Source of the DNA: a plasmid
Length of the DNA: 64,000 bases
Sequence record: NZ_CP090684.1
Strand: one strand, 5' to 3'
The notes beneath the pieces are model-generated. The model had not been told where the DNA came from. It made no database searches and was given only the letters and a program-made list of their open reading frames with translations. The translations under genes and the position numbers were made by a program. Of this stretch, positions 18,120 to 52,587 are shown one piece after another (positions within the stretch are counted from its first letter, which is position 1; each line of letters begins with the position of its first letter).

Positions 18120-18127
18120 GGCGTCGC

Positions 18128-19735: not shown

Positions 19736-19751
19736 CTGTATAAACATACAG
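19736..19751 (+). promoter_or_regulatory. LexA (SOS) box CTGTATAAACATACAG
   Basis: Perfect CTGT-N8-ACAG palindrome 18 nt upstream of the imuA ATG. Confidence 0.75.
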
Positions 19752-19769
19752 TGCCAGAACCCCACGACC

Positions 19770-21885: not shown

Positions 21886-21891
21886 TTCGCG

Positions 21892-26594: not shown

Positions 26595-26616
26595 TCTCTC
26601 CTGCTTTCCCCGTATT

Positions 26617-27027: not shown

Positions 27028-27089
27028 GATTGCTTTCCGAATAGGTTGACAAGCAACGAACTGGCGCCTGCCCGCCTCGGTCCGTTGCG

Positions 27090-28448
27090 TTACAGCGACC
27101 AGTCGTTCGGCGCCAGAGGATGAATTTCGCGGTCGGTATCGTAACCGAAGTCATCTGGCAGAACGCCGGGTCGCCGGCACGGATGCAATCTGTTCAGCAG
27201 CTCGAGCGGCCCACTCGAATTTATTTCATCATTGAACCTGTTTATTATTTTACCCGCTGTTTCAGTTGGCATGCCAGCAAGCGCCGAGGCAGCCAGGTCC
27301 ACAAAGCAGACCCACAACCTCCATTCGATGTCCTCCGCACGCACGCCAGCCGCCGAAAGGTCGGCGTGCAACCGGCGAACTCTCTCGACGGATCCGGTGC
27401 CGATTTCGTAGATTTCCTCTACGCGCCAAACCGACGTCTCACTCGGATCGGCGGCGGCAGCGTGCAAACGCTTCGCTTTGGGTACTTGCCGCAGCCCCTC
27501 CGGAGATGCCGCCGGGCTCGGAGCTAGGCGAGCGTCCGCCATATTCGGCACATCGGCATCATGTTCTGCGCCGTGGGCCGCCTGACCCTCGAATACAGGA
27601 CCAGGTGACGGTTGTTGGCCATCGTCAATGGACTGCGATGCAGTAGAACCCGGTGCCTCGGCCGGCGCGCTCGAGCGAGCCATAGCAGCTGCCTCGCCGA
27701 CCGCATCTTTCACCGACGGAGCGGCGACCTGCTTCAGCAGGTTCAGTCGCGCATCGAGCGTCAAGCGTCCGAACTTCTTTCCTGCCCGCATGTCCGTTGC
27801 GATTTCGTGCGCAGTCGCGGCACTGCAAGCCTCGATGTCGGCCATTTTGTTGGCCGCTTCGACGTCGTCGAACATGTCCTCATCGAACAAGGCTCGGGTC
27901 GTGGGACCATAACGAAGGAACCGCAAGTGTTTCGAGACCCATGACGCGCTGCGCTCCTTGCCGCTCGGCGCCGCCCAGATGCTGGCTGCTTGCTCTCGCC
28001 CGTACAACTCGACGTCTGTCGCAAGGCCGATAGCCGTCTCTCTCACCGAGAGTTGCTTTCGATCGATGTTCTCGGACACCTGATACATCCGGATTGCCAA
28101 GTCTGACGTCCCGGCGGGGAAAATCTTTGCCTGTATCTCCGGCCAGTCGTTCAAAAGGCTGCCTCGGATGCGCCGCTCGCCGGCGATCAGCTCATACTCG
28201 TCGCTGTCCGAAATTGCTCGCACCAATATCGGCGTGTGCACGTGACCGATCGCCCGAAGCCGCTCGGCGAACGCCTGCACATCGGCGAAATCGTCGCGAA
28301 CTTGAGGTTTGATCCGAACTTTATTGACCGCGATGAACCTCGTCACCGCCCCTGTGGCCTGCTCGATTTCAGCCACACGCGATGCCGCGCTTGCCGCTCG
28401 AGTCAGTGCCGAAATAGAAGCAAACTTCCCGCTTGTCGCCTGCTGCAT
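27090..28448 (-). CDS. parB: ParB/KorB-like partition protein (ParB N-terminal nuclease-like domain)
   Basis: ParB box ELIAGERRIRGS. Downstream of the ParA ATPase. Confidence 0.7.
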   Translation of the reverse strand: MQQATSGKFASISALTRAASAASRVAEIEQATGAVTRFIAVNKVRIKPQVRDDFADVQAFAERLRAIGHVHTPILVRAISDSDEYELIAGERRIRGSLLNDWPEIQAKIFPAGTSDLAIRMYQVSENIDRKQLSVRETAIGLATDVELYGREQAASIWAAPSGKERSASWVSKHLRFLRYGPTTRALFDEDMFDDVEAANKMADIEACSAATAHEIATDMRAGKKFGRLTLDARLNLLKQVAAPSVKDAVGEAAAMARSSAPAEAPGSTASQSIDDGQQPSPGPVFEGQAAHGAEHDADVPNMADARLAPSPAASPEGLRQVPKAKRLHAAAADPSETSVWRVEEIYEIGTGSVERVRRLHADLSAAGVRAEDIEWRLWVCFVDLAASALAGMPTETAGKIINRFNDEINSSGPLELLNRLHPCRRPGVLPDDFGYDTDREIHPLAPNDWSL

Positions 28449-28462
28449 TCAACGACCCCTCT

Positions 28463-29305
28463 TTATGCGTTGCTCACCGAAAGGCCGATGCGCTCCAAAA
28501 TGGAGTCGCACACGGCGTGCATTTCTTTCGCAGCAAGCCGATCACTTTCGCCCCTCCGACGCGCCCACACCGGATGAAAACTTGTCAGGCGGACCCCCGC
28601 ACGATCGCGCAATTCGTGTTCGAGTACTGCGTCGTCGAACGCATTCCGAACAGTCGTCCTCATCGATTGGTCATCGGCGCGTCGCAGATTGACCTTGTTG
28701 AGCAGAACGCCCACCAGCTCGAGATCCGGATTCCATTCGCGCTTGACGAGCTCAAGCTTCTCCGACGTACTGAGAAGGCCCGACATACTGTCAATTCCGA
28801 GATCAGTCGGAATCACGACGTAGTCGGCGCAGATCATCCCGCCCAACACGAGGTTGCTCATCGTTGGCGCGGTGTCGATCACGCACAGATCAAATTGGTC
28901 CGCCAGTGCATCCAAGGATTCCCGCGCCTTCGCCGCTGATTCGAGCGGCCAAGTCATGACGTCCTCGAGCTCCGGCGTCGCGCCGATCATTGCCGCCCCG
29001 TCGACAATTCGCATTGGATTGACGTCCCGTTTGCCCTGGTAGAGCAAGTGCGCACTCGAATTTTCTGTCACATCCGGTAGGCCCAAGTGCTCCCATGTAA
29101 GTGCCGCGCCCATCACCGACGGACCCGACTTCGCGGTCAGCTTTCGGTACAGCATCGACCTTGTCAGATTGCCTTGCGGATCCAGATCCACCACCAACAC
29201 GCGGATCCCTCGCTCGATTGCCGTGTAGACCAGATGCCGAACAATAGTCGTCTTGCCGGTGCCGCCCTTCCCATTCACGATGCTTATCTTCTTCATGGCC
29301 ACCAT
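28463..29305 (-). CDS. parA: ParA/IncC partition ATPase
   Basis: Deviant Walker A KGGTGKTT. Confidence 0.9.
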   Translation of the reverse strand: MVAMKKISIVNGKGGTGKTTIVRHLVYTAIERGIRVLVVDLDPQGNLTRSMLYRKLTAKSGPSVMGAALTWEHLGLPDVTENSSAHLLYQGKRDVNPMRIVDGAAMIGATPELEDVMTWPLESAAKARESLDALADQFDLCVIDTAPTMSNLVLGGMICADYVVIPTDLGIDSMSGLLSTSEKLELVKREWNPDLELVGVLLNKVNLRRADDQSMRTTVRNAFDDAVLEHELRDRAGVRLTSFHPVWARRRGESDRLAAKEMHAVCDSILERIGLSVSNA

Positions 29306-31763: not shown

Positions 31764-32936
31764 TTATTGAGCACCTCGCGTCGGCGCAATCGCGACAGAG
31801 GCCGGTCGAGCCGTGGCGGTCGCGTTTTCGTTTGTCGCGTGGAAGGCTGGAGTCTCGCCGGTAGGCTTATCGAACCATTCCTGCTTCACGTTCACAACGG
31901 CTTGCACTGCGCTTGCAACGGCCGCAACTCCACCCAGGATCATCACCTTGCGCTGCAGTGCCTGGCTGTCAGCGTGTCGGCGCTCCTCGGTCAAGTATTG
32001 ATCGAGCACGCGAACAGCGTTGGGAAGCATTCGGTAAGCCGTGTTCTGTTGCACTACTTCAACGAGCCCCTCGGCAACCAATACGCGGACCAGCGCGCGA
32101 ATCCGCTGGAGCACCTCATCGGCTGCGGGGTGACGAATCCAACCGCGCTGATACAAAAGCGTGGCGATCATCACGGCGTCGATCGTGCGTCCATCTTGGT
32201 CCATCGAAAGCCTGACGATCGCCTGCAAGACGTCCATGCGCTCTTTGCGTTCTAACTGGCGGCGGTTGAATCGACCCTCTCGCCGTTCCTTGCGTCGTGC
32301 AACTCGGCTGTAGTGGCGAGTTCGGACCTTCAGCCAGAACCGAAACGGGTCGCGCTCGATAAACTCAAAGCGGCGAAGGTAGTAGACGAAGGTCGGTTTC
32401 GCCTGCACTGCGCGCGCCATTGGAATATCGACTGCGTCTGGTTGGTATCGACCGTCGTGCCACGGCCGACCCAGTACCCCGGATCTCGACAGGCCGACGA
32501 TCAGCACGTCTCCCTCCCCTTCAATACCGTCGAGTCCCGCGTAGAAATAGTTTCGTTGTTTCAAGCGCTCGTCACCCGTTACCGGGATGCGATCAGGCGA
32601 CGGGTTCTTCTGCACGATTTCGATGGCCTTACGCAGCCACAGCTCGTTCGGAAACATAGGTCGTGTTTTTATCTGGCGCGTACTCGCCGTATTGTTTGGT
32701 TCAGCGTTAAGAGCGTCGCGAAAATTTCCAACCGCGATTTCAATCAAAGCGCTGTTGGAACAGTCGCGTACCGGATAGACTGCTCGATGCCCGCCCCTCT
32801 CGGGGCGGGCTGGCCTTGTCAGTGGAGCATAGGTCCGTACAGTCGACTCAGCCTGATGCTCCAGGACAGCAGTTCGACGCCGGCGGCGGCGCAGTTCAGT
32901 CAGAGAGTCAGCGTTTTGAGTTTCATCCGGGCACAT
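31764..32936 (-). CDS. Hypothetical protein with C-terminal winged-helix-like DNA-binding region
   Basis: Coherent protein-like sequence (...LLYQRGWIRHPAADEVLQRIRALVRVLVAEGLV...). Start uncertain; an internal Met at 32657 is possible. Overlaps + strand ORFs judged spurious. Confidence 0.4.
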   Translation of the reverse strand: MCPDETQNADSLTELRRRRRRTAVLEHQAESTVRTYAPLTRPARPERGGHRAVYPVRDCSNSALIEIAVGNFRDALNAEPNNTASTRQIKTRPMFPNELWLRKAIEIVQKNPSPDRIPVTGDERLKQRNYFYAGLDGIEGEGDVLIVGLSRSGVLGRPWHDGRYQPDAVDIPMARAVQAKPTFVYYLRRFEFIERDPFRFWLKVRTRHYSRVARRKERREGRFNRRQLERKERMDVLQAIVRLSMDQDGRTIDAVMIATLLYQRGWIRHPAADEVLQRIRALVRVLVAEGLVEVVQQNTAYRMLPNAVRVLDQYLTEERRHADSQALQRKVMILGGVAAVASAVQAVVNVKQEWFDKPTGETPAFHATNENATATARPASVAIAPTRGAQ

Positions 32937-33307: not shown

Positions 33308-35620
33308 TCACCACGTCCAGCGCTCACCGGCCACTTCGGCCCACGCCTCGCTCTCCGACGCACACCGATGCTGTTCTGCGGTCATCGCGATCTGAACAAG
33401 CAGGTCATCGACGCGCCGATCGAACGCATCTTGGTTGTCAAATGGCACCTGTAGCACGGTCACACCGTCTCGGATCGGCGTCCGCCCGAACCCGGCCAGT
33501 ACTTCACGTTCGACGCGCTCGAGGACGCGTGCGCGACCACGCCCGCCCGGCCGCTTCGGCTCGACCCGCAGCTTCACGTGCACGGCGACGAGTTGGGCCG
33601 CTGCGCCCGTGTCCGCCCGGGCAGGCGGCGACGCGACCGGCACGCCCATGGCCGCCGGCGGATCCGCGCGATCGAGCGCGGCGTTGAACAACGCCTCGAC
33701 CGACTGGAACTGGCGTACCGCATCCGCCTTTGTATATAGCGTGGTGGTCCCTAGGCTGGCATGACCGAGCAACTCCTGCATGTCTCGTATGTCCGCGCCG
33801 GCGTCCAGGCCATGGTTCGCGAAAGTGTGGCGCAACCAGTGCGTGCTCGCACGGCGCAAGTCCGCCGCCGCGTTCGGATACGTGGCGGCCAACTGATCCG
33901 CCGCCCGCGCAAAAATCCCCTTGTAGAGCCGTCCGACCACGTCCGGATGCAGTGCTTCGCCGGTCACCAGGTTCGCGATGAGCGGCGTATCGGCCGGCGC
34001 GGTTTCGAGCGTCAGCGGAATCGGGCGGGCGCGCAGCTGCGCGCGCAGCGCGTCGATGAGTCGCCGCGGCATCGGCACAGTGCGTGCGCGCCGGCCCTTG
34101 CCCATCACCTTCAGGCTCCACGCATCGTCGAGCGCGCCATCGAGCGCGGTGCGCGTGAGTGCGCCGGTGGTCGCGGCGGCGATTTCAGCCCGTCGCAGTC
34201 CGGTGACGTAGGCAAACAACAGCAGGAACGCGTCGCGCGCGTTTGCAGCCTGATTCGCTGACCGATTCGCCAGTTGGGAGTCGCCGCCATCGAAGGCCGA
34301 CGTAGGGCGCAGCACCGTCTGCAGCACATACTGCCACTGCGCACGCGTGAGCGAGCGCCCGGTCGCGTCGATCGGTACCGAGGGCGCGGCCGGAAGTCCA
34401 GCGAACGGATTCACACGCAGATACTGCTGGGCAACCAACCATTCGCCCATCGCATTCAGGATCCGCCGCGCGGTGTCGCGGCTGCGTTCGGACAGCGGCC
34501 CGACGAACGGTCGCCATGCGGGATCGAAACGCTCGACGCGGCTGCGGCCGATCCAGCGCGCAGCGGGTTGCGGGTCGCGCAGGAACACGTCGAGATATTC
34601 CGCGCAGTCCATCGTATTCAACGACGACAGCGGCTTGCCCTTCGCGACGATCGCCCACAGCAGCAATCGCTCGGCTTCGCGCCGGTACGCGCGGCGGGTC
34701 GCTTCGCTGCGCGCGCCGCGCGTCGCGATCCAGGCATGTACCGCCTGCAGGTCGGTGTTCAGTTCGGCCTGGTGCGCAGGCACAGGTGCACGGTTCAGGC
34801 CGGCCGAGCCGTCGAGGGCGGCTGGCACGCGCAGCGCCTCGAGCGGCGCCACGTCGGCAGCAGCGCCCGGTAGCGGCTGCAGCGCCGGGTGACCCGGTGC
34901 GAAATGCCGACGCGGCGTGACGGCGAGAGGCGAAAGGTACCCAAGCGTGTCCGGGTGTTGCGCAATGAAGTCGGTAATGCGCTGCGCGCCGATCGCGCCC
35001 AGGCGCGGTATCGCGCGGTACCACCGTTGGCGCCGTGTACGCATCAGCGCGAGCAGCTCGGCGAACGTCGTGATGCCGGCCGCCGCGAGCCGTGCGACCA
35101 CGCGCGAGTCGAACCAGCCGTCGAGCGTGTGGTCGGGCCGCGGCGCCTCGACGAGACTGGCCTCCATGCGCGCGAGTGCGGCGTCCTGGCGATCGCGTAG
35201 TCGACGATTGCGCGCGGTCTTGCTATCGAGCGCGGGCGACGACGCCGGCGGGTAGGTCTCGATATACAGCGCGACGAGCTCCCGCTCGCTGTAGAACGCG
35301 TCCGGATCCACCTCGGCCCGGAACTCCTCGAGCGTCGGCACTTCCCGGCCGGCCGCGGCGCCGGCGTGCGCGTCGCGCGGCAGGCTACCAGGTTTCAGGC
35401 GTAGCAGGTGCGCGGCGTCGACGTCGCGCGCGCGCCGCGCGGCGATCGTGAGCGTATCGCGCAGCGTCGCGATCGTGCGGCGCGTCACGCGCACGTCGGT
35501 CCCCGGCACGCCGTAGTGCGCATGCAGCGTCGCTTCGTCGAGCCCTTCGAGGTACGCTCGGTACAGCGCGAAGTGGCCCGGGGTCAGGCGCAGCGTTGCG
35601 CGAGCGGGTGAAGCACGCAC
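33308..35620 (-). CDS. Large tyrosine recombinase/integrase with N-terminal DUF3701-like HhH region
   Basis: 770 aa. Box II HWLRHTFANHGL...LLGHASLGTTTLYTKA. Helix-hairpin-helix region (ITTFAELLALMRTRRQRWYRAIPRLGAIGAQRITDF). Last gene of a coupled operon. Confidence 0.85.
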   Translation of the reverse strand: MRASPARATLRLTPGHFALYRAYLEGLDEATLHAHYGVPGTDVRVTRRTIATLRDTLTIAARRARDVDAAHLLRLKPGSLPRDAHAGAAAGREVPTLEEFRAEVDPDAFYSERELVALYIETYPPASSPALDSKTARNRRLRDRQDAALARMEASLVEAPRPDHTLDGWFDSRVVARLAAAGITTFAELLALMRTRRQRWYRAIPRLGAIGAQRITDFIAQHPDTLGYLSPLAVTPRRHFAPGHPALQPLPGAAADVAPLEALRVPAALDGSAGLNRAPVPAHQAELNTDLQAVHAWIATRGARSEATRRAYRREAERLLLWAIVAKGKPLSSLNTMDCAEYLDVFLRDPQPAARWIGRSRVERFDPAWRPFVGPLSERSRDTARRILNAMGEWLVAQQYLRVNPFAGLPAAPSVPIDATGRSLTRAQWQYVLQTVLRPTSAFDGGDSQLANRSANQAANARDAFLLLFAYVTGLRRAEIAAATTGALTRTALDGALDDAWSLKVMGKGRRARTVPMPRRLIDALRAQLRARPIPLTLETAPADTPLIANLVTGEALHPDVVGRLYKGIFARAADQLAATYPNAAADLRRASTHWLRHTFANHGLDAGADIRDMQELLGHASLGTTTLYTKADAVRQFQSVEALFNAALDRADPPAAMGVPVASPPARADTGAAAQLVAVHVKLRVEPKRPGGRGRARVLERVEREVLAGFGRTPIRDGVTVLQVPFDNQDAFDRRVDDLLVQIAMTAEQHRCASESEAWAEVAGERWTW

Positions 35621-35621
35621 G

Positions 35622-36353
35622 TCACTGGCCTCCGGTCGGCGTCGGGTGCAGCCACGCGGTGCGCCGCGCGATCCAGCCGAGGCCCCAGCTGACGCCCATC
35701 AGGCCAGCGAGGCCGAGACCGAGATGCACGGCGACCAACGCCGGCGCCTCGTGCACGCGCGGCGCGTGATAGATCTTCCACATGACGTCGAGAAACAACC
35801 AGAATCCCGACCCCGCAACGGCGGTGAACCACTGCGGCACCGCGAGCGCGGCCTGGGCGACCTGCTGTCGATAAATCAGCGGCACGAGCACGTACGCAGC
35901 CGTAATCACCCCCATCAGCACCCGCGTGCCCGGATACATCACCGACCCCACGCCGTAGCTCAAGGCGGCCGCGCCGAGCGCGAAGATCGCCCATTGCCAC
36001 GCGACGAACGGTTCGGCGAAGGGTTCAACGGGCCGGTCGCGTCCCGACACGAGCACCGCGTAGCCGACCTGCAGGATCCCGAAGCCGATCAGGGCGCAGC
36101 CCGCACCGGTGGCAGCGTGCTCCAGCGCGGAGAGCGCATCGTGATGGCCGACGGCCGCGCGGACCCATGCGCGCGCGGCGCGCGCGGCAGTGTCCCCGTG
36201 TTGCGCCGCCTTGCGCCATGCGTCGCCGGCGGCCTCGAATGTCGACGCGATCACGATGAGCAGGCCGCCCAGCAACGCGTGATAGAGGATGCGCAGCGGC
36301 TCCGGCCAGTGTTCGATCGACCAGCAGCGGCGCGACGCGCGTAGTTCGCTCAT
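35622..36353 (-). CDS. Polytopic inner-membrane protein of unknown function
   Basis: Start MSELRASRR with ATGA overlap to the upstream gene. About 6 TM helices. Ends 1 nt before the integrase start. Confidence 0.5.
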   Translation of the reverse strand: MSELRASRRCWSIEHWPEPLRILYHALLGGLLIVIASTFEAAGDAWRKAAQHGDTAARAARAWVRAAVGHHDALSALEHAATGAGCALIGFGILQVGYAVLVSGRDRPVEPFAEPFVAWQWAIFALGAAALSYGVGSVMYPGTRVLMGVITAAYVLVPLIYRQQVAQAALAVPQWFTAVAGSGFWLFLDVMWKIYHAPRVHEAPALVAVHLGLGLAGLMGVSWGLGWIARRTAWLHPTPTGGQ

Positions 36354-36658
36354 GCGTGGCCTCCGGTTGCCGAGCGCCGCGGCGCGCCCTCGATGAGGGC
36401 GGCCATGCGCGCCAGCACGTCGCGCATGAACGCGGGTGCCGCGCACTGCGCGTCGGCCGGGTGGAAGATCCGCTCAGAGCGGAACCCGAGGTAGGACAAG
36501 CGCCACGCGCCGTCTGTCTCGAACTGCAGGTGTGCGGGATGGCCGGCGAACAGTGCGCTGAATTTGTTCGTGTCCTGCGCGGCGTGCTGGTCGGCGATCC
36601 AGCGCTGTTGCGCGAACGCGAGAAACCGCGCGCGCACGTAGGTGGTGGTCAGGGCCAT
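36350..36658 (-). CDS. Hypothetical protein (103 aa)
   Basis: Start MALTTTYVRARF, 10 nt after the upstream stop. Confidence 0.4.
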   Translation of the reverse strand: MALTTTYVRARFLAFAQQRWIADQHAAQDTNKFSALFAGHPAHLQFETDGAWRLSYLGFRSERIFHPADAQCAAPAFMRDVLARMAALIEGAPRRSATGGHA

Positions 36659-36668
36659 GAGCAGATCT

Positions 36669-36866
36669 TCAGGGATTAGCGCGCAACGCCAGCGCCGCGC
36701 GCAGGTTCGATTCGGCCAGCGCGAGCCGGCGCTGCAGCGCGTCCTTTTGGTCGACCACGACGGCGAACGCGTCCTCGGTCGCCTCGAGCTCGTGCGCGAC
36801 GTCGAGCAGCGCCTGCACGACATCGGCCGGCAGCGTGCCGCGGTAACGCCGCATGCAGTCTCGCAA
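36669..36866 (-). CDS. Small alpha-helical hypothetical protein (65 aa)
   Basis: Coiled-coil-like sequence. Lies between the protease gene and the 103-aa gene. Confidence 0.3.
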   Translation of the reverse strand: MRDCMRRYRGTLPADVVQALLDVAHELEATEDAFAVVVDQKDALQRRLALAESNLRAALALRANP

Positions 36867-36965
36867 GTGCGCGGGGCTCGGCGAATTCGGTGCGTACAGT
36901 CGCGTCGTCGTTCAGCAAAGCGAGGCGCATGCTATCGGGCTCGCTCAGTGGTGGAACAGGTGCGT

Positions 36966-37886
36966 TCATGCGACACCGCCCGCGGGCGCAGCGGGCGAAT
37001 CCGCCTGCAGACACGAGAAGCCTCGAGCAGCCAACTCGCGCAGCGTCAGTTGCACAACCTGCCCGCCGTCGACTTCGCATGGCAGAGACAGGTCAAACGC
37101 GTCACGGACCTTGGCGATGTACGAGCAGTCCGTGTCCGGTTCCTGGCTCGACACGTTGATGCCAACAACCGCCCCACTGTCGTCAAAGACCGGCCCACCG
37201 CTGGCGCCCCCGTGGAGATGCATCGATGTCTCGAAGCTGGGAAACGGCAGCAAGACGCGATCGCGCATCACCGGATAATGCTCGACGATATGACCGTCGT
37301 AGTAATGTGAGTGGAGGTCAAGCCGAGCGTTCCGTCCTCCTTGTTGAGCCTCGAATACCGCATCGGGAAGCGCAAACGTGAAGACGTGCTCTCCAATCAC
37401 GGGATCGCGGGCACTCAATCGCAGGATCGGGTTAGGCAGCGGCGCACCGGTCACCCGATGAACACTCGGGGCCAGCACGCAGAGCGCGATGTCGGTAACC
37501 GCATGCGTTACAGCATGAACCACGGGTCGACGTTGATACTGGCCGCCGTCCAGGACATGCACGCACCACAGCCGCGGATACCCGTGAGGGTCCGACTCAA
37601 ATGCGACCTGGGCCACATGCGCCGCGGTGATCAACACACCCGGTGCCACGAAGAAGCCCGTCCCGACGATCTCCATCGCCTGGCCATCTTCGGTGCGCCG
37701 AAACATCGACACCACTACGGTCGCCGGATCGGCTGGTCGGCCGTCCGCGAAGCGCGGTTCAAAGAACTCGGGTGCGGCAACGCCGACCAGGGCGGCCGCA
37801 CGGTGTCGGTCCAATTCGGCTTGTTTGCGCGCTTTCGCCTGCTCGACACGTTGTGCGTAAGTGCCGCGTTGCCGTGATTCACTCAT
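36966..37886 (-). CDS. Trypsin-like (chymotrypsin fold) serine protease
   Basis: Catalytic triad context GVLITAAHV (His), TDIALCVL (Asp), GGASGGPVFD (Ser). No signal peptide. Confidence 0.75.
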   Translation of the reverse strand: MSESRQRGTYAQRVEQAKARKQAELDRHRAAALVGVAAPEFFEPRFADGRPADPATVVVSMFRRTEDGQAMEIVGTGFFVAPGVLITAAHVAQVAFESDPHGYPRLWCVHVLDGGQYQRRPVVHAVTHAVTDIALCVLAPSVHRVTGAPLPNPILRLSARDPVIGEHVFTFALPDAVFEAQQGGRNARLDLHSHYYDGHIVEHYPVMRDRVLLPFPSFETSMHLHGGASGGPVFDDSGAVVGINVSSQEPDTDCSYIAKVRDAFDLSLPCEVDGGQVVQLTLRELAARGFSCLQADSPAAPAGGVA

Positions 37887-38037
37887 CTGCGATGCTCCGT
37901 TGGCGGTCGTCGATCAGGACCATAGCAGTGTCTGGGCCGCCACGGAAACGGTGCGTGCCGTGCGGATCCAGGCCGAGCCGTTCCAGCGCGTGGTGGCCGG
38001 CCGCCTCGAGCGCGTGATTGACGACCGCAGCGCTCAT
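37879..38037 (-). CDS. Tiny coupled ORF (52 aa) between unknown 202-aa gene and protease
   Basis: ATG overlaps the upstream stop (ATGA) and the 3' end overlaps the protease start by 8 nt. Coding status uncertain. Confidence 0.25.
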   Translation of the reverse strand: MSAAVVNHALEAAGHHALERLGLDPHGTHRFRGGPDTAMVLIDDRQRSIADE

Positions 38038-38642
38038 TCGCCAAGCCCCGATGGAGGGGCCACGTCGGCCGCCACACGCATCAGCTCCATCACGTAGTCG
38101 GGCATCGTCAGCGCGATCGCCGACGCCTGCTCGAAGCTGACGATGCTCTTCGGCTCGTCGCCATAAGACAGATCCGTGATGGCGAATTCGACTGCCTGCT
38201 TGCCGAGCTTCATGCGCCGCTTCACCGCATAGGTGGCCCTGCCGCCCAGTTCGTATCCGACGATCTCCGCCACGGTCGTGCCGATCACCGCGTGCCAGTG
38301 GGACGCATCGGCCGCGAGCGCGTACCAGGTCACACTGCCGCTGCGACGTTTCGCAAATTCGAACGCGGTCGCCCATGCGAGCGCGTCCTCCGCAGTGGCA
38401 AAGCCGTCCTTGCGGGCAGCCAGCTCGTACAAGCCGGTCGCCCGGACGGTCGCTAGGAACGTTGGAGCGCGTTCATTGGCGCCGGGCCGTTCAACGAGCG
38501 TCACGTCGGGCAGGCGCGGCTCGCCGCTCGGGCTGAGTTCGACCGAGCCGTCGCTCCGATGGAGGAGCATCCAGCTGTAGCCTCCGACGTCGACGGTCGA
38601 ATAGTTCGCCATGGCGGCGAACGAGCTGGGGATCTGGGTCAT
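38034..38642 (-). CDS. Hypothetical protein (202 aa), no recognisable domain
   Basis: Protein-like composition. Translationally coupled to downstream genes. Confidence 0.5.
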   Translation of the reverse strand: MTQIPSSFAAMANYSTVDVGGYSWMLLHRSDGSVELSPSGEPRLPDVTLVERPGANERAPTFLATVRATGLYELAARKDGFATAEDALAWATAFEFAKRRSGSVTWYALAADASHWHAVIGTTVAEIVGYELGGRATYAVKRRMKLGKQAVEFAITDLSYGDEPKSIVSFEQASAIALTMPDYVMELMRVAADVAPPSGLGE

Positions 38643-38673
38643 GTTAGGTCCTGGTCGAGGGTCGAGGTCGGGT

Positions 38674-38994
38674 TCACTTCCAGAACAGCGCGGGCGCGTC
38701 CAGCGTCAGGGCCAACGCTTGGTCGTCTGAAAGCCCGGCGTCGACCTGTTTGCCGTCCTGATCCGTCACGCTCGTCAGGACGAGAAAATCGCGCGTCTCG
38801 GGACCGGCGTCGGTCTGACGGGTCAACGGCCGACCCTCATAAAGCGCTTGGCGCGCCGGCTCGCCCGCAAAATCGTGAGTCAGGCGAAACAGGAGGCCGG
38901 CGGAACCGCCGTACGGCGACAGGCCATCGCGATGAAGGGGCCCGCCTACACAGCGGCAGATGTCTTGGTGGTTCGATGCAGCGAAGCTGGTCAT
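38674..38994 (-). CDS. Hypothetical protein (106 aa)
   Basis: Start MTSFAASNHQ. First ORF after the terminator at 39275-39296. Confidence 0.35.
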   Translation of the reverse strand: MTSFAASNHQDICRCVGGPLHRDGLSPYGGSAGLLFRLTHDFAGEPARQALYEGRPLTRQTDAGPETRDFLVLTSVTDQDGKQVDAGLSDDQALALTLDAPALFWK

Positions 38995-39274
38995 GCCGGA
39001 ATTCCCCGTCAGAGTGGTTGGGGCTCGCGCGCCGCGAGCCGTGTTGGACGCCACGAAAAACGTAGCGCCGATCATTGTGCCGGTCGCGGTCCGAAGGCGG
39101 ACCGACGCCGACGAATCGAACCAGGCGCCCTCGCCGGCCTTGCGCGGCGGGGTCTGGACAAGTATAGGAGAAAATGCGGCCGATCTGACAGCGAAAAGTG
39201 GTCCATCTGATAAGCACAGTTATCAGATGTAGCAGTTTTGCCGCCTGCCCTACTGCACGCTGCCGCCGACCATG

Positions 39275-39296
39275 AAAAAACCCGGCCGGAGCCGGG
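39275..39296 (-). terminator. Rho-independent terminator downstream of vapC
   Basis: On the minus strand: CCCGGCTCCGGCCGGG hairpin followed by TTTTTT. Confidence 0.65.
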
Positions 39297-39337
39297 TGTT
39301 GCTGCACGAACAGATCGACGTGCGCGCTTGCATTTCG

Positions 39338-39745
39338 CTACGCAGGCCGGAGCCAGTTTTCGACGGCGAGTCCTGTAACGCGAGTGAATTCGGCCGTATT
39401 GTCCGTGACCAAGACGGCGTCGACGGCCATCGCGTGGGCAGCGATCAGCATGTCGTTCGCCCCGATCAACTGACCCTGCCTCTCGAGATCGGCTCGCAGC
39501 CGCCCGTAGCACTGATCCGCGTCGGACTGCAGCGGTAATACGGTCAAGCTCGCGAGCAGCTGCTCGACACGCTGGGCGAGCGCCGAGGAGCCGCGCTTAC
39601 AGACGCCGTACCGTAGCTCGGCCGCGACGACGATCGAGGTGCACACTTGCTCGGGCCGCGTTTCCCCGATGCGCGAAGCGCATGCGCCCCGTGGGTCTCG
39701 GATCACGTTCGACAAAATATTGGTGTCGAGCAGATAGAGGCTCAT
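39338..39745 (-). CDS. vapC: VapC PIN-domain toxin
   Basis: MSLYLLDTNILSNVIRDPRG, the PIN acidic residue pattern. Confidence 0.9.
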   Translation of the reverse strand: MSLYLLDTNILSNVIRDPRGACASRIGETRPEQVCTSIVVAAELRYGVCKRGSSALAQRVEQLLASLTVLPLQSDADQCYGRLRADLERQGQLIGANDMLIAAHAMAVDAVLVTDNTAEFTRVTGLAVENWLRPA

Positions 39746-39984
39746 TCAATATCGACCGGTTCAGCGGGGAGGTTTTCGATGTCAGGGAAAGTTTCGTCCA
39801 AGGGCGCCCATTGCGCAAATAGCTCGCGTAGAGACGGCGCTTCGACCGGTTCGATGATTAGGCGCCGGCCTTCACGATGAATAGTGACTTCCGAGACCGG
39901 CAGCTCGAACTCGCGCGGGATCCGCACGGCCTGGCTACGTCCGTTGCGAAATAGGCGTGCGTGGCGGGTGTCATGGGTTGGCAT
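39742..39984 (-). CDS. vapB: VapB antitoxin (AbrB/SpoVT-like)
   Basis: 80 aa. Overlaps vapC by 4 nt. Confidence 0.85.
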   Translation of the reverse strand: MPTHDTRHARLFRNGRSQAVRIPREFELPVSEVTIHREGRRLIIEPVEAPSLRELFAQWAPLDETFPDIENLPAEPVDIE

Positions 39985-40085: not shown

Positions 40086-41117
40086 TTATCTGCGGCTACC
40101 TGCGCCCTTCGGGCTGGCCGGATTTTCGCGGGAAACTGTGCGTGCCGGCTTGTCGGCGCGCAGCCCGCAAAAAGACGGATGCCGTAACCGGCCGGCCGGC
40201 GTCCACTCGAGAAACGCCACTTCGGCGACGAGGTCGGGCTTCAGCCAGTGAAACTCACGATCGACCTCAGGGTCGGGGGCGCTGGCAAACGGCGAGCGTT
40301 TGCGGCCCAACGCCGAGAGCCGACTCTCGAATTCCCGAGCCTGTCGCGGCGTAAAGCTCGGCGCGACGTGGCCGACATAGCGCAGGCGACCACCCTCCTC
40401 GTACACGCCCAACAGCAACGCCCGCACCCCTGCTGTCGCCCCTTTCCGGCGGGAAAACCCGCCGATCACGAACTCCTGGCGTCTGACACATTTCAATTTG
40501 ATCCACCGATCCGACCGTCCGGACCGATACGGTGCGTCGATTTGCTTGCCAATGATGCCTTCGAGGCCGAGCTCACATGCGGATGCCAGCATGGCGGACG
40601 CATCTGCCTCGATCGCCTCGGAAAATCGAACCTCCTCCCGAAGAACTTCACCGATGATTCCCGTTAGAGCGGATCGGCGCTCGTGCCATGGCCGACGGCG
40701 AAGGTCAGTGTCGTCTATCCACATAAGGTCGAAGACCACAAGACATATACCGGTGGTACGCCGACTGTTGAATGCTTCCTGCAGACGGCTGAAGTTAGGG
40801 CGCCCATCGGGGGCGAAACATACGGCCTCGGCATCAAGCCACGCGCGTTGGACCGGTAACCTCTTCAGGACCGCGGTCAGGTGCGGGAGCTTACTCGTCC
40901 AATCGTGGCCATTCCTTGTATAGAGCCGTACGTCACCATCATCGACGCGCACGAGCATCCGGTAACCGTCGAACTTTATCTCGTAGGCCCAATCTCCCGC
41001 CGGCGGCGGCTCGGACATTAGCACGGCCAAGGCAGGCGCAATGAATTCGGACATGCGCGCATTCTTGGCTACGACCACCCCCGCTCGGGTCTTTTGTGCT
41101 GTTGTACGCCGTTGCAT
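40086..41117 (-). CDS. ATP-dependent DNA ligase (LigD ligase-domain type, stand-alone)
   Basis: Motif I EIKFDGYR plus the downstream adenylation/OB region. Start likely at internal Met 41117 or 41054, because the parS palindrome at 41204-41219 lies in the annotated 5' extension. Confidence 0.7.
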   Translation of the reverse strand: MQRRTTAQKTRAGVVVAKNARMSEFIAPALAVLMSEPPPAGDWAYEIKFDGYRMLVRVDDGDVRLYTRNGHDWTSKLPHLTAVLKRLPVQRAWLDAEAVCFAPDGRPNFSRLQEAFNSRRTTGICLVVFDLMWIDDTDLRRRPWHERRSALTGIIGEVLREEVRFSEAIEADASAMLASACELGLEGIIGKQIDAPYRSGRSDRWIKLKCVRRQEFVIGGFSRRKGATAGVRALLLGVYEEGGRLRYVGHVAPSFTPRQAREFESRLSALGRKRSPFASAPDPEVDREFHWLKPDLVAEVAFLEWTPAGRLRHPSFCGLRADKPARTVSRENPASPKGAGSRR

Positions 41118-41203
41118 ACGGCCTCCCTCTTGCCGATCGGAATGCGCGCAATCGAGCGCAATCGATATACCCGACGGCCTTCGCAATTGACCGAGGCTTG
41201 CAC

Positions 41204-41219
41204 CTTGGCTCGAGCCAAG
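41204..41219. repeat. parS-like 16-bp perfect palindrome CTTGGCTCGAGCCAAG (copy 1)
   Basis: Self-complementary 16-mer. Four copies cluster around parAB. Confidence 0.65.
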
Positions 41220-41402
41220 ATCTCGGCGATCCATCGGGGTCAGCTTCCACTGCTTCAGCCGATACTCGATCCTGCTCTGGATTTGCAGGTCTTGCTGGCT
41301 ATCGGCACAAGAGCGAGTCCTTGACGATCTGGCTGGCGCGATACGCTCTTGCAGGTGCCATGTCCGGCTGGCGAGCGACGTTCATTGGAACGTCTTTGCG
41401 GT

Positions 41403-41610: not shown

Positions 41611-42282
41611 ATGGTCATCACCATCGGTGCGGAAAAAGGCGGCGTTGCGAAGACACGATTAGCGACGCACATCGCGGCATTAGCTGCGAGCGAGGGAGTG
41701 GACGTGGTTCTTCTCGATACGGACAAACAGGGGTCCGCTATGAGCTGGTCGCGAATTCGAAATGAGGAAGGCGTCACACCTTCCATCCCTGTACTCGCGC
41801 TCCCGGCGAATCCCGCACGCGAGCTAGCGAATCTGGCAAACAAGTACACGCTAGTGGTGGTTGATATCGGGGCGCAAAACTACCGGACCATGCTGGAATG
41901 CGCACTTTTATCCGATCTCGTGCTAGTTCCGTGTGGTCCCGACCAACAGGAAGTTGAATCAACTCTCAACGTTTTTGCGACCCTTAAGGACATGGGGCCC
42001 AGGCACGAGAGTGGGGAAATCCCAGCCTACGTTGTTCTTACGCGAGTTTCGCCGATTGAAGGATCCAAGGCGACGGCGGAACTGAGAAGCTATTTCAAAA
42101 GCGAAGATATCCGGTTGTTTGATTCGCAGATTCCCCAGCGGGAAGCATGGCGCGCGACCGGCAAGACTGGACGCGCGGTTCACGAGCTGAAAGGCCGCGA
42201 TCGTTCCAAAAAAGCGATTGAAGAGATGGAAGCGGTCTACCGGGAAATCATTAAGCGGATCAATGGTGGGGAGGAGGAATAA
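41611..42282 (+). CDS. parA: ParA-family partition ATPase (small type)
   Basis: Walker A GAEKGGVAKT. Confidence 0.85.
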   Translation: MVITIGAEKGGVAKTRLATHIAALAASEGVDVVLLDTDKQGSAMSWSRIRNEEGVTPSIPVLALPANPARELANLANKYTLVVVDIGAQNYRTMLECALLSDLVLVPCGPDQQEVESTLNVFATLKDMGPRHESGEIPAYVVLTRVSPIEGSKATAELRSYFKSEDIRLFDSQIPQREAWRATGKTGRAVHELKGRDRSKKAIEEMEAVYREIIKRINGGEEE

Positions 42283-43247
42283 TGGCTACTTTCCGGAAAA
42301 AGGCGGTTGATATCGAACGAGTGGCAGCCGTCGAGGATGCAGCTTCGTCGGCGCCGATCGTCGGCGACCCTCGCTTGGCACCGACGATGCCCTCAGTTTC
42401 GCAGCGTGAGAGCGGGGCGGTTGGCTCGAGCCAAGACCCTAGGAAGTATGAGGTTGGACACGTATATGAAATCCCGATTGGCAAAATAAGATCAAATTCT
42501 GTCAATCCAAGAGCGATCTACACCGCTTCTGCTGTCTCCGAGATGGCGGAATCTCTCCTCGCGCGGGGCCAAGGTCAAGCCGCGATCGGCTATGTCAACG
42601 ATGACGCAGAGATTGTGCTCATCGACGGCGAGCGGCGGCTTCGCGGCGCTCGGACTGCCGGCCTTTCGACCCTGCGGATCGAGATTCGTCCGAAGCCCGG
42701 AAGCGAGCGCGAGCTTTATGAGGAAGCCCGGGCTGCGAACGTAGAGCGGAAGGATCAAAGCCCGTTGGACGACGCTATCAAATGGAAGGAGTTGATCGCG
42801 CGGAAGATCTATCCCACGCAAGCGGCGCTTGCTAAGGCGCTGAATCTCGGCGAAGACCACGTGAGCCGCACATTGTCTCTCGCCCAATTGCCGAACAAGC
42901 TTGTCCAAGCAGCGGCGGAGCACCCGGAACTTCTTTCTCTCAAAATGCTGAACGCCATTCGAGAGTTCTGGGAAGTGAAGGGGGACGATGAAACTCTCGA
43001 GCTGATTTCCGAGGCTGCGAAGAATGGGCTGGGGTATCGCGACGTAGCCGCTCGCCGTAAGGCCGCTGCAAAAGGACCGGTTCGGCGGCCGCGGTCGACG
43101 CGGGAACAGCTGAGTTTTCGAGGAGCGAAGGGGGAGTTTAAGTCTTTTGAAGAGGACGGCCGGATCGAGTTGAAGCTGAAGGGCTTGGCACCGGACGTCG
43201 CGGCCGAGATCAGTGAAAAAATCTTGGCTCTTTTCCCGAAGGAGTAG
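42282..43247 (+). CDS. parB: ParB partition protein
   Basis: ParB box LIDGERRLRGA. Contains the fourth parS-like copy internally. Confidence 0.85.
   Translation: MATFRKKAVDIERVAAVEDAASSAPIVGDPRLAPTMPSVSQRESGAVGSSQDPRKYEVGHVYEIPIGKIRSNSVNPRAIYTASAVSEMAESLLARGQGQAAIGYVNDDAEIVLIDGERRLRGARTAGLSTLRIEIRPKPGSERELYEEARAANVERKDQSPLDDAIKWKELIARKIYPTQAALAKALNLGEDHVSRTLSLAQLPNKLVQAAAEHPELLSLKMLNAIREFWEVKGDDETLELISEAAKNGLGYRDVAARRKAAAKGPVRRPRSTREQLSFRGAKGEFKSFEEDGRIELKLKGLAPDVAAEISEKILALFPKE
42420..42435. repeat. parS-like palindrome inside parB (copy 4, inner 14 bp perfect)
   Basis: GTTGGCTCGAGCCAAG. Confidence 0.6.
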
Positions 43248-43359
43248 GGGGCGCTGCTGCTTCGCAGCGCAAGCGGGTTACCGACACAGGGGCTAGAGGA
43301 CGTTGAGCTGGGATGTGCTGCGCTGTGCAACTGTGCACGGCTGCAGCATCTGGAAACTA

Positions 43360-43960
43360 TCGGCTCTGGAGCGATGGGTTCTCTTTACATCCTGTAAGAA
43401 AGTCTCGTGCTTGGAGCGATGGTGTATGACGTTCCTCCAGCGATGGTGCAGACGCGGCGGGCTTGAGCGCGAGAGTGTGTGCTCACCTTGCTTTGCGCAT
43501 CTCGGGTCGTTCTTCCAGCGATGCTTCTCGTCGAGAATCGTTCCTCCAGCGATGTTTGTGGGTGACTCGGCGGCCGGTACTGTCGTTCATGGAGCGATGA
43601 GTGACGGATCCACCGTGAGATTGTTGGGCTGCAGGTATCGTGCTTCCAGCGATGGATGACATGATTAGAAAAAGATTAAAGACGATTAGGCTTTGTGGAA
43701 AACATAGGTAGCCCACTGATTGCAAAGAGGTTTTTTGCGGATCGTGCTCGCTGGAAGAACGATAGATGCATCGCTGGCGATACGATGCACGCCTCGCTGG
43801 AGAGACGATGGGCAACGCTGCAGGAACGACAGAGGTTGCACGCTGGAGGAACGAGGAACATCGCTGCAGGAACGACTGCGCCGCGATACCTCGCTGGAGG
43901 GACGATAGTCCCGTAGTTTTTTTGCTGAACCATCGCTGGAGAGACGAGACAAGGGTCTTG
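43360..43960. repeat. Iteron-type origin of vegetative replication (oriV): about 15 direct repeats flanking an AT-rich core
   Basis: Seven copies of (C/T)(C/T)(G/C)(G/C)AGCGATG(G) at 43366-43655. AT-rich segment 43656-43700. Eight about 17-bp iterons CGCTGGAGnnACGAnnG at 43749-43950 with about 21-25 bp spacing. Immediately upstream of the trfA-like gene. Confidence 0.75.
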
Positions 43961-43991
43961 ATGGCGGGACCGACCTACATATACTTCTCGC

Positions 43992-44849
43992 ATGGCAAAT
44001 TCCATCGTCGACCACGTGAAAGCGATTGCGGCCCGCGCTAGCAGCGCGGGCGCTGAAACGCAATCTCATCCGACACAGATTCCGCTGTGGCCGCCGAACG
44101 TTCGTGGTATGCCAAACGCGCTAGCGCGCTCGGCTCTGTTCAACGTCAACAAGTCGAATGCGCCGCGTAGCAGGATGGAGAAAGCGCTGATTGCAAGTGT
44201 TGATGGGGTGGAAATAACGTTCAGTGGGGAAGAGCTTAGACAGGACGATGCGGACGTCTTTCTAGAAGTGCTTCACTTGGCTAGAGACACGCAGCTGAAC
44301 GAGAAGGTGGAATTCACGGGCTACAGCGTACTGAAGTCTCTCGGGTGGGGCACGTCTGTGAAATGTTACGACCGACTCGTGACGACGCTGGAACGACTGC
44401 AGGCAGGGCAGGTGAAAGTGCGTTTCTCCGGCAACAAAAAGGGGTTCGTCGGCTCGTTAATCCGGAAGTTCCTGTGGAAAGAGGGCACTGAAACGGGAAC
44501 TGACGGGAAGACGAGGTGGGTGGCGTACGTAGAACCCGAGATCGTGGCGCTTTTCTCCGATGACGATTACACGCGACTCGCGCGCGAGCAACGCCAACGG
44601 TTGCGATATGAATTGTCGAAATGGCTGCACACCTACTACCACACGCATGCAGTGCCTTACGCGCATTCCGTTCGTTTCCTTCATCGTCAGTGTGGTTCGC
44701 AGACCAAAGAGTTGTTTCACTTTCGCGCGAACTTGAAAAAGGCGCTTGATGAACTTGTAAAGGAAGGCTTCCTGGTGAGCTGGACGATCGACAAGAACGA
44801 TTTGGTCCATGTTGTTCGCGCGTCGGCTCGCGGGGCAATTGCCGCGTAA
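43992..44849 (+). CDS. trfA: TrfA-like plasmid replication initiator
   Basis: 285 aa. Lies downstream of the iteron array. The IPLWPPNVRGMPNALARSALF region resembles TrfA-family initiators. Confidence 0.65.
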   Translation: MANSIVDHVKAIAARASSAGAETQSHPTQIPLWPPNVRGMPNALARSALFNVNKSNAPRSRMEKALIASVDGVEITFSGEELRQDDADVFLEVLHLARDTQLNEKVEFTGYSVLKSLGWGTSVKCYDRLVTTLERLQAGQVKVRFSGNKKGFVGSLIRKFLWKEGTETGTDGKTRWVAYVEPEIVALFSDDDYTRLAREQRQRLRYELSKWLHTYYHTHAVPYAHSVRFLHRQCGSQTKELFHFRANLKKALDELVKEGFLVSWTIDKNDLVHVVRASARGAIAA

Positions 44850-45059: not shown

Positions 45060-45152
45060 GATATACTCGATAAGCGCCTGAGACAGCAGGCGTCGGGTTT
45101 GGCGACCCGTCTAATCAAAGCGCACAAGACCGCGCCCGCGGTCTTTTTTGTG
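45060..45152 (+). ncRNA. Candidate small RNA with intrinsic terminator
   Basis: Promoter-like TTGTAA-N17-GATATACT. Internal hairpin CGCCTG/CAGGCG. Strong terminator AAGACCGCG-CCC-GCGGTCTT + TTTTTT at 45126-45152. No ORF. Confidence 0.35.
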
Positions 45153-45313
45153 CCGAAGGCCTTTGCGCGCCGGTTTCTATGGGCGGGCCAAGGCGGGGAG
45201 ACCTTCGAGTCTGCCGGTTTCTTTGATTTCCGGTTCGCCAACCCTGCCTTGTGCCCGCTCACCCCATTTGGCGATGGGGCGCGGGGAAAATCGCAAATCA
45301 AAGAGGCCAATCC

Positions 45314-52538: not shown

Positions 52539-52587
52539 ATCTTCCCCGTACTTCAACTGCCGCGCCGAACGGGCAGTTGCCTCTCGA

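Follow-up and report, generated by a model that had tools for sequence, protein, structure and literature searches.

Why a tyrosine recombinase gene should stand last in a long operon of uncharacterised proteins is the question raised by a minus-strand unit at positions 38994-33308 of a 64,000-nucleotide (nt) stretch of sequence record NZ_CP090684.1 (hereafter 'the window'), which is part of a Burkholderia multivorans plasmid and matches a contig of assembly GCA_018148295.1 at 99.995% identity. The unit comprises eight open reading frames (ORFs), here A, B, a 52-amino-acid (52-aa) ORF, a protease gene, D, E, F and G, and ends in G, which encodes a 770-aa recombinase with a DUF3701 domain. A first-pass annotation, made from the sequence alone, took G for an integrase that mobilises the element carrying it, and took the genes upstream for a co-regulated accessory system, possibly defence-like or an excision-control module. 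The analysis reported here points to a different answer. We find, directly upstream of the unit, a palindromic site that accompanies recombinases of this group across Betaproteobacteria and that occurs once per plasmid, and we find that the genes between site and recombinase differ from plasmid to plasmid. We propose, as the probable reading, that the unit is a plasmid-encoded multimer (dimer or cointegrate) resolution module, in which G would act at the palindromic site and the intervening genes would be passengers.

The recombinase and a linked palindromic site

The eight proteins, and the alternative proteins found in their place in other plasmids, were searched against Pfam, NCBIfam, PHROGs and PADLOC. 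As first annotated, the last gene of the unit encodes a protein with DUF3701 (PF12482, E=4.7e-27, above cut-off, at residues 152-238) and Phage_integrase (PF00589, E=8.2e-20) domains. G is laid out as an N-terminal domain (residues 1-150, without a family match), DUF3701 (152-238), a core-binding domain (~300-350), a catalytic domain (449-633) and a C-terminal domain (~655-770). It has the R-K-H-R-H pentad and tyrosine nucleophile of the tyrosine recombinase superfamily, and this catalytic set (R476, K508, H594, R597, H620, Y629) is intact and is invariant in our alignment A2, including a 38%-identical, Tn3-linked member. The top NCBIfam matches are XerC and XerD, both below cut-off (TIGR02224, 101.7 vs. 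335 bits; TIGR02225, 77.6 vs. 330 bits), the XerS and integron-integrase models of NCBIfam score far under their cut-offs, and the closest sequence matches in the PDB are XerC-like, XerD and XerA proteins. Judged by these matches, G is Xer-like but neither XerC nor XerD. No domain of the arm-binding type was detected in G, and DUF3701 precedes the core-binding and catalytic domains, which is the arrangement of the DUF3701 'TnpR' subgroup, classed among the simple tyrosine recombinases without arm-binding domain (Smyshlyaev et al. 2021, PMC8138268).

The putative site of action of G lies 3.6 kb upstream of the recombinase gene. Two perfect inverted 10-nt arms, CATCTGATAA and TTATCAGATG, flank a 6-nt spacer, CTGTGC; outer inverted CAAAA/TTTTC arms surround this core; and the centre, ATAA-N6-TTAT, is like that of Xer dif/cer cores. 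The core palindrome is unique in the window even at 3 mismatches (chance expectation, 0.02). The site adjoins a promoter-like stretch with a -35-like CTGTCA at 39191-39186 and a -10-like TATACT at 39166-39161, the columns of which are nearly invariant in our alignments A1 and A8, and a (T/C)TGTCA box ~16 nt past the right arm is common to Burkholderia plasmids and Caballeronia replicons. A consensus promoter scan did not call the stretch 39161-39191, to which we assign a promoter function provisionally. The ~110 nt upstream of gene A are conserved in all related plasmids, whatever gene comes next.

Comparison of plasmids shows that the site is single and that its arms, but not its spacer, are fixed. 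Of the first 15 loci compared (loci are designated by L numbers), 11 have one copy ahead of the operon, and L011 has a version with 1 mismatch. In each of 24 complete Burkholderia plasmids the conserved site region has a single location, which in every case is without annotation. From plasmid to plasmid the arms do not change, and the 6-nt spacer takes at least eight sequences; a variable spacer between fixed arms is what would be expected of a crossover region on which the specificity for a partner depends. Homology among the plasmids sets in at the left edge of the site and stops at the stop codon of G. The window is 99.975% identical to pTGL1 (AP009388, of B. multivorans ATCC 17616) over 15,958 nt, and all 4 mismatches in these aligned nt are located within 18 nt, at 39200, 39202, 39215 and 39217. 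Two of them are inside the palindrome spacer and two just past the right arm; the cluster resembles a short conversion patch or a hotspot of mutation at the putative crossover site. Because the homology edge falls at the site, and because the pTGL1 mismatches cluster in and beside its spacer, the site behaves as an exchange point.

The boundary of the unit had first been described as an intrinsic terminator that isolates it from the upstream vapBC. The hairpin and T-run are real (the vapC terminator hairpin is kept in L002, L010 and L014 in alignment A1), and the same boundary also contains the palindromic site and the promoter-like stretch. Plasmids without the vapC terminator have another AT-rich palindrome, GCTGTATAGAGATATATCTTTATACAGC, ~65 nt upstream of the site (L003, at ~11700-11760; L005; L006; L016, at 4628; L017, at 4592), which could be an operator or a terminator.

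The association of site and recombinase extends beyond Burkholderia. With an alignment of these recombinases as query, a scan of genomes, one for each species, yielded 539 relatives, from which 80 loci were kept. Of these 80 DUF3701-recombinase loci, which are spread across Betaproteobacteria, 54 have exactly one perfect TGATAA-N6-TTATCA, at a distance of up to 300 nt upstream of the recombinase gene in 33, at 300-1500 nt in 10, further upstream in 7 and just downstream in 4. For TGATAA-N6-TTATCA the uniform expectation is 0.07, and three control patterns had 0 matches in the same 1.18 Mb. The inner TGATAA is constant, and the outer arm bases vary by recombinase clade. Typically the site is 100-200 nt upstream of the recombinase gene, often near parAB, and well over half of the 80 loci gave a ParA homologue in tblastn. 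In Caballeronia the order is site, recombinase (~625-641 aa), ParA, ParB, near the starts of megabase-size scaffolds. Only in Burkholderia plasmids do 1.3-5.2 kb of genes, differing by plasmid, lie between site and recombinase; A, B, E, F and the gene for a 299-aa protein of sister plasmids, C299, are absent from every non-Burkholderia locus among the 80. The C-terminal domain of G (~110 aa) was found only in Burkholderia plasmids in which this slot is filled, and the slot-less Caballeronia-type recombinases are without it.

Two relatives are near transposase genes of the Tn3 family. In L008 the gene for a 568-aa DUF3701 recombinase, 38% identical to G, is divergent from and adjacent to such a gene, placed, we infer, where a cointegrate resolvase would be, and the intergenic region contains an ATAA-N6-TTAT core; in L052 the distance between the two genes is 4.7 kb.

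Genes between site and recombinase

Independent gene calls agree with the eight minus-strand ORFs of the first-pass annotation, and no minus-strand terminator-like site was found inside the unit. The junctions from A to G are, in order, 31, -4, -8, 99-111, 10, -4 and +1 nt. The tight coupling originally described for the whole operon, by gaps of 10 nt or less or by ATGA overlaps, thus holds for five junctions and fails for two, A-B (31 nt) and protease-D (99 nt to the TTG of D, 111 nt to its ATG). E and F are proteins of 102 and 243 aa, not 103 and 244 aa, because the first codons of the longer versions are not start codons. Table 1 lists the coordinates.

The order (A)-B-C299-D-E-F-G recurs in Burkholderia plasmids of three replicon types (TrfA, Rep3, RepA_C), which bears out the expectation that these genes co-occur with the DUF3701 recombinase. 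The genes before G are A-B-C299-D-E-F in pBPSE01, L006, L009 and L010; A-B-stump-F in L011; A-B-E-F in L013; fused A'B'C299-D-E-F in L014; protease-D-PIN_12 in pRF23 and L040; D-PIN_12 in L016 and L017; two F paralogues in L018; and other unknown proteins in pBcp895-1, pBVB_1 and B. ambifaria CF3. Of these arrangements, those of L013 and L014 derive from the C299 type by deletion. Each accessory gene is absent or substituted in at least one sister plasmid, and none is constant. The notion of an accessory system is borne out in that the genes travel with the recombinase, and is not in that there is no fixed gene set: each gene is missing or replaced somewhere, and the protease has been swapped in. 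Truncated recombinase genes, keeping only the N-terminal ~170-300 residues of G, are present in L005 (pBcp895-1; 6859-7515) and L040 (8001-8786), still preceded by F or PIN-type genes, and look like decayed copies of the module.

The window itself contains an instance of such a swap, the edges of which can be located. In blastn comparisons with nine sister loci, homology stops at 37951 and resumes at 36884 in L003, L009, L010 and L014, and at 36883 in L006. The 1066 nt between these edges stand in for the ~930-nt body of C299, which sister plasmids such as pBPSE01 keep in this place, and contain, besides the protease gene, the last part of the 52-aa ORF and, out of frame, the 5' end of a D gene of the protease-linked kind; they match pRF23 and L040, where the protease adjoins D. 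By these breakpoints, a 1066-nt protease cassette has replaced C299 in the window lineage. The 52-aa ORF, first listed as a gene in its own right, begins with the N-terminus of C299 (~27 residues; residues 1-27 are 89-92% identical to C299 of L003, L009 and L010) and continues in foreign sequence. The 65-aa helical protein of the first-pass annotation, D, does exist as an ORF and is N-terminally truncated relative to its 96-104-aa counterparts in sister plasmids (81-104 aa for the homologues in alignment A7); it is reduced to 61-65 aa because the D start of the cassette is out of frame with the resident D. The D-homologous frame is closed by a stop at 36914-36912, and the D-like N-terminus is in an ORF starting at 36969. 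This off-frame ORF of 97 codons is a remnant of the protease-linked D N-terminus that runs into an off-frame tail; it starts MNAPVPP, which bears a loose likeness, by eye and unscored, to APVPP in the N-terminal part of D of L003.

Neither repeats nor site-like sequences were found at the cassette junctions, 37951 and 36884. We rejected integron-like or other site-specific capture of the cassette, given the lack of junction repeats, the single site and the position of the variable genes downstream of the promoter rather than at the crossover. We likewise rejected a recombination hotspot at 37951, since a single replacement event in the lineage of the window suffices to explain the common left breakpoint.

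Family searches recognised no more than the protease, the PIN_12 protein and the recombinase. The protease is, as first annotated, a trypsin-like Ser protease (family S1): it has a Trypsin_2 domain (PF13365, E=1.4e-14, 55.5 bits vs. a cut-off of 27.6) with an intact His-Asp-Ser triad, H90/D132/S229, in motifs TAAH(90), TD(132)IA and GAS(229)GG. It has no N-terminal hydrophobic segment and is predicted to be cytoplasmic. DUF3701 recombinases have a homologue of it upstream in pRF23 and L040 too, and in the metagenomic locus L099, where the protease gene overlaps the start of the gene for a 638-aa DUF3701 recombinase, followed by parAB. A has no family match and is 49% identical to a protein of L010; its position in other plasmids is occupied by unrelated proteins of 85 or 105 aa. 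B, an orphan with a predicted model of good quality (predicted local distance difference test score, pLDDT, 86), has no structural or sequence relatives of known function; its profile matched 35 of 1.84 billion representatives, ten sampled matches were without informative Pfam domain, and two matches, to large repeat proteins, are probably spurious. Four sister loci were aligned for E and have counterparts of 71-84% identity, with a 49% paralogue in L004; E has no family or PDB profile match, and neither B nor D had a significant match in PDB profile searches. F has ~5-6 hydrophobic helices and falls in 18 clusters, all named members of which are from Burkholderia; its AlphaFold2 model (pLDDT 53) was not usable. 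Remote-homology and structure searches of the kind recommended at the outset, by profile for B, D and E and by model for B, gave no informative relatives. In pRF23, L016, L017 and L040, F is replaced by a 389-aa PIN_12 protein, PIN389, and the succession of D and PIN_12 in pRF23 looks like an antitoxin-toxin pair.

Table 1. Positions of the unit, its candidate site and neighbouring maintenance genes in the window
Feature	Position	Strand	Remarks
Intrinsic-terminator-like hairpin ACCCGGCTCCGGCCGGGT + T-run	39272-39297	-	7-pair stem, 6 G-C pairs; ends vapBC unit
Putative recombination (resolution) site	39193-39240; core 39204-39229		CATCTGATAA-CTGTGC-TTATCAGATG, minus strand 39229->39204
Promoter-like stretch	39161-39191	-	-35-like and -10-like boxes as in text
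Gene A, 106 aa	38674-38994	-	source annotation; function unknown, variable position
Gene B, 202 aa	38034-38642	-	orphan soluble protein, invariant C-terminal helix SIVSFEQASAIALTMPDYVMELMR
52-aa ORF	37879-38037	-	C299 stump fused to unrelated sequence
Replacement cassette, 1066 nt	36885-37950	-	blastn breakpoints
Trypsin_2 protease, 306 aa	36966-37886	-	PF13365
Off-frame ORF, 97 codons	36676-36969	-	ATGA overlap on protease stop
Gene D, small helical, 61 aa (ATG 36854) or 65 aa (TTG 36866)	36669-36866	-	
Gene E, 102 aa	36350-36658	-	ATGA overlap with F
Gene F, 243 aa	35622-36353	-	polytopic membrane protein; stop 1 nt before G start codon
Gene G, 770 aa	33308-35620	-	DUF3701 tyrosine recombinase
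vapBC	39338-39984		high-coordinate side of operon
TrfA/ParAB module	41611-44849		
RPA-type initiator gene	25470-26594		PF10134, E=2.8e-56
ParB of second module	27090-28448		
ParA of second module	28463-29305		

Function of the unit

According to the hypothesis that the unit is a multimer-resolution module, which we consider probable, G is an Xer-like 'simple' tyrosine recombinase that would act at the core palindrome (39204-39229), with two protomers of G on the inverted arms and strand exchange across the 6-nt spacer. With a single site per plasmid, only dimers would offer two sites in direct repeat, and recombination in dimers would yield monomers, to be segregated by the adjacent ParAB systems. 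G bound at the site would probably also autoregulate the operon, because the site adjoins the operon promoter. In Burkholderia plasmids, genes would have come between the ancestral site/promoter and G, making an exchangeable passenger slot that is read from the resolvase promoter and that in the window holds A, B, the C299 stump, the protease cassette, truncated D, E and F. The passengers would not be required for recombination, and their own role may be in plasmid stability or conflict, toxin-antitoxin-like or protease-controlled.

We favour this reading because a dif-like core is linked to the recombinase gene, because it is present in one copy per replicon, because the surroundings are partition and toxin-antitoxin (TA) genes, and because a promoter-like stretch adjoins the site. 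The geometry of the core is of the Xer type, with 10-11-nt arms and a 6-nt spacer, and the core has the near-palindromic form of dimer-resolution sites (10-13-nt arms, 6-8-nt spacer). Other contexts are likewise those of replicon maintenance, with parDE beside the unit in pRF23 and L011 and the order site-recombinase-ParA-ParB on Caballeronia replicons. Passenger status is suggested because A, B, C299, E and F are absent outside Burkholderia and each is replaceable, while G is 84-85% identical across Burkholderia plasmids by blastp (85-88% over the aligned columns of A2). A resolution system of their own is typical of mid-size plasmids (PMC11724359), and in IncP-1 plasmids the resolution site doubles as regulatory region of the resolvase gene (PMC6312765).

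Several points weigh on the other side. The comparisons show how the unit is built, what in it is conserved, that site and recombinase are linked, that each plasmid has one site and that the slot is a mosaic; cleavage by G at the site, the resolution role and autoregulation are inferred from them, and the palindrome could be an operator only. Some passengers could be partners of the recombinase, in view of the E/F overlap and of the 1-nt distance from the stop of F to the start of G, and the position of the protease directly upstream of DUF3701 recombinases in three separate arrangements could point the same way. The tie between the C-terminal domain of G and a filled slot hints at co-adaptation, a correlation that is confounded by phylogeny. 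In L099 the contig extends for 765 nt upstream, and these contain no TGATAA-type site; another palindrome upstream in L099 was considered as the site and was unconvincing. Finally, chromosomal dif sites are located at the terminus, unlike the window site, which is near a replication/partition region.

The main rival, which could also be an addition to the resolution reading, is that the accessory genes form a conflict module (anti-phage, toxin-antitoxin-like addiction or plasmid competition) on the resolvase promoter, with the recombinase a mere neighbour. Gene content of the slot is hypervariable, and the proteins encoded there evolve more quickly than G (identity falls to 46% for B and to 38% for F, vs. 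84-85% for G); the D-PIN_12 alternative is ordered like antitoxin then toxin; relatives of the protease at 45% identity adjoin RES-domain genes and come after a ubiquitin-like (Bub-type) conflict operon; the protease domain is like those of retron type XI and Avs1b; and the flanks of the unit in sister plasmids are rich in genes for TA systems, OLD nucleases, cyclic-oligonucleotide-based anti-phage signalling systems (CBASS) and type VI secretion systems. In PADLOC-DB 2.0, however, A, B, D, E, F, G, C299 and PIN389 have no match, the protease matches only through its domain, generically, to parts of RT-Protease_XI (retron type XI), Avs1b and LmuA, and no model fits a whole component, so that the suggestion of a defence-like system finds no accessory protein in a known defence family. 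Moreover, B, E and F are orphans without recognisable effector or sensor domain, no set of genes is conserved, every component being dispensable in some plasmid, and with D truncated and C299 destroyed any such system may be defective in the window. We regard this explanation, taken by itself, as possible but unlikely.

A bolder combination, for which we would claim still less, is that DUF3701 recombinases and TGATAA-N6-TTATCA sites make up a widespread, uncharacterised single-recombinase resolution system of plasmids and secondary replicons in Betaproteobacteria, and that the slot orphans (protease, D with PIN or F, B, C299) constitute a new conflict or addiction system whose expression would be gated by the site-bound recombinase and would report multimer state or plasmid loss.

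Next ranks the explanation that the accessory proteins are co-factors of the recombinase, providing directionality or topological selectivity, anchoring of the synapse to the membrane by F or proteolysis of G, in the manner of PepA/ArgR at cer or of TnpT-TnpS. The translational coupling of E, F and G, the overlap of the protease gene with the recombinase start in L099, its position upstream of the recombinase in pRF23 and L040, and the lack of the C-terminal domain in Caballeronia-type recombinases are in keeping with it. We nevertheless consider it improbable: in most of the 80 family loci examined nothing separates the recombinase gene from a site 100-200 nt away, the slot sets are non-homologous while G and the site arms are nearly constant, and there are minimal plasmids without D and E (L011), without protease and D (L013) and without B, E and F (pRF23).

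The original proposal, of an integrative mobile element with G as integrase and with the upstream genes as cargo or excision-control module, now seems very improbable. It is true that Pfam and PHROG label the catalytic domain of G 'phage integrase', and that the module, from site to G stop, is found on plasmids of different replicons and hence moves between backbones; recombination at the site between co-resident plasmids would explain that exchange equally well. The 64 kb contain no tRNA gene, second site or flanking direct repeats such as an integrative element would have, complete plasmids have a single site each, and G belongs with the simple Xer-like recombinases, without a recognisable arm-binding domain. 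The location, too, is a maintenance region, between replication/partition genes, and relatives have the fixed order site-recombinase-parAB on megabase-size replicons. It is likewise highly unlikely that another plasmid protein uses the palindrome, as a transcriptional operator or centromere only, and that G acts elsewhere, even though the palindrome adjoins a promoter-like stretch and ParAB genes are often close: the motif tracks the recombinase, not partition genes, over three replicon types and across genera, for which reason we rejected the palindrome as parS; it is present at loci without a tblastn homologue of the window ParA/ParB; no other gene is conserved beside it across the family; and a free 6-nt centre between fixed arms is typical of the cores of tyrosine recombinases and not of parS palindromes.

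In the literature searched, we found no characterised DUF3701 recombinase and no Burkholderia plasmid resolution system, only the classification paper, and no description of a cognate site or function for the DUF3701 subgroup; relative to that literature, the candidate cognate site and the exchangeable gene slot appear to be new. If the multimer-resolution reading holds, a 'phage integrase' gene common on plasmids of the Burkholderia cepacia complex and of B. pseudomallei would be reassigned to replicon maintenance, a reassignment that guards against naming such regions integrative elements. The DUF3701 group would gain a concrete, testable candidate site, compact at ~26-48 bp; natural spacer variation suggests that orthogonal versions of it may exist, a possible recombination tool for high-GC Betaproteobacteria. 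The slot, bounded by a fixed promoter/site and the recombinase, is a hotspot at which small operon-embedded genes are swapped, and a handy place to look for new plasmid stability or conflict functions.

Plasmid setting and known systems

The operon is surrounded by plasmid maintenance DNA, between a TrfA/ParAB module and an RPA/ParAB module, and adjoins vapBC. On the high-coordinate side, past vapBC, are a LigD-type ligase gene and genes for ParA, ParB and TrfA; on the low-coordinate side are an HTH (helix-turn-helix) regulator gene, a second ParA/ParB pair and an RPA-type replication initiator gene. Because the RPA/ParAB module (25470-29305) exists besides the TrfA/ParAB module, the window plasmid is a two-replicon mosaic, with the recombinase operon between both modules.

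Other features of the window lie outside the operon. The ligase gene (40086-41234, between parA and vapBC) encodes a stand-alone ATP-dependent DNA ligase with the LigD ligase domain only, of 322-343 aa in source annotations vs. 382 aa for the maximal ORF. Downstream of the recombinase gene, a 390-aa gene (31764-32936) of unknown function matches phrog_7611 (E=1.3e-08); it is a separately mobile piece, because it recurs at a different position in pBcp895-1 (L005 10556-11554, 85% DNA identity). Three adjoining minus-strand genes at 14269-19363 encode proteins of 650, 633 and 411 aa, of which two have a Phage_integrase match (weak in the 650-aa protein) and the 633-aa protein has none; the trio resembles a 'recombinase in trio' element. 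Long plus-strand ORFs at 19566-25041, the last of which (21892-25041) is a DnaE2-type polymerase gene with PHP, DNA_pol3_alpha and finger domains, look like a plasmid-borne imuA-imuB-dnaE2 mutagenesis cassette, the assignment being made from the DnaE2-type gene. Just downstream of trfA, before a 427-aa ORF without Pfam match, are Rfam matches above gathering score to isrK (45074-45148, 60.6 bits) and C4 antisense RNA (45175-45266, 70 bits). A zeta-toxin domain gene (52588-53820) adjoins a DUF1173 gene (51309-52556) on the minus strand.

Among known systems, the integron platform likewise has a tyrosine recombinase, a site, a promoter and variable promoterless genes read from that promoter. Unlike an integron, the window unit has no attC-like repeats between genes and a single site; its variable genes are downstream of the promoter and not at the crossover, the recombinase gene is co-directional and distal, and the junctions of the protease cassette are without site-like repeats. 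The DUF3701 'TnpR subgroup' (PMC8138268) shares with G the DUF3701, core-binding and catalytic domains, whereas G is ~200 aa longer, has no adjoining transposase and is embedded in a plasmid maintenance operon.

The single-recombinase Xer systems and plasmid tyrosine resolvases (XerS/difSL, XerH/difH, Cre/loxP of P1, ResD/rfsF of F) resemble the window unit in having one tyrosine recombinase and one near-palindromic site with 10-13-nt arms and a 6-8-nt spacer, in the location of the site by the recombinase gene, once per replicon, and in the Xer-like catalytic domain. The unit differs from these systems in the extra N-terminal, DUF3701 and C-terminal domains of G, and in a site that is by the replication/partition region, not the terminus, with 3.6 kb of genes between site and recombinase.

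In RP4, the parCBA operon has its accessory genes, the role of which is unclear, first and its resolvase gene last, with parDE alongside. The distal position of an integrase gene, first considered unusual, therefore has a parallel in RP4/RK2 parCBA, which also ends in a resolvase; in the window unit, genes between the ancestral site/promoter and G account for it. The two differ in that RP4 ParA is a serine resolvase and G a tyrosine recombinase, in that their accessory proteins have no sequence relationship, in that the TA pair of the window is co-directional, with a terminator between, whereas that of RP4 is divergent, and in that accessory genes of the window type are interchangeable between plasmids. 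The layout of the window unit is like that of the parCBA-parDE multimer-resolution module of IncP-1 plasmids (described in PMC6312765). In both, the resolution site, a putative one in the window, is the operon regulatory region, the resolvase gene is last, a TA pair adjoins, and the whole is in a maintenance region of a plasmid that, like RP4/RK2, has TrfA-type replication.

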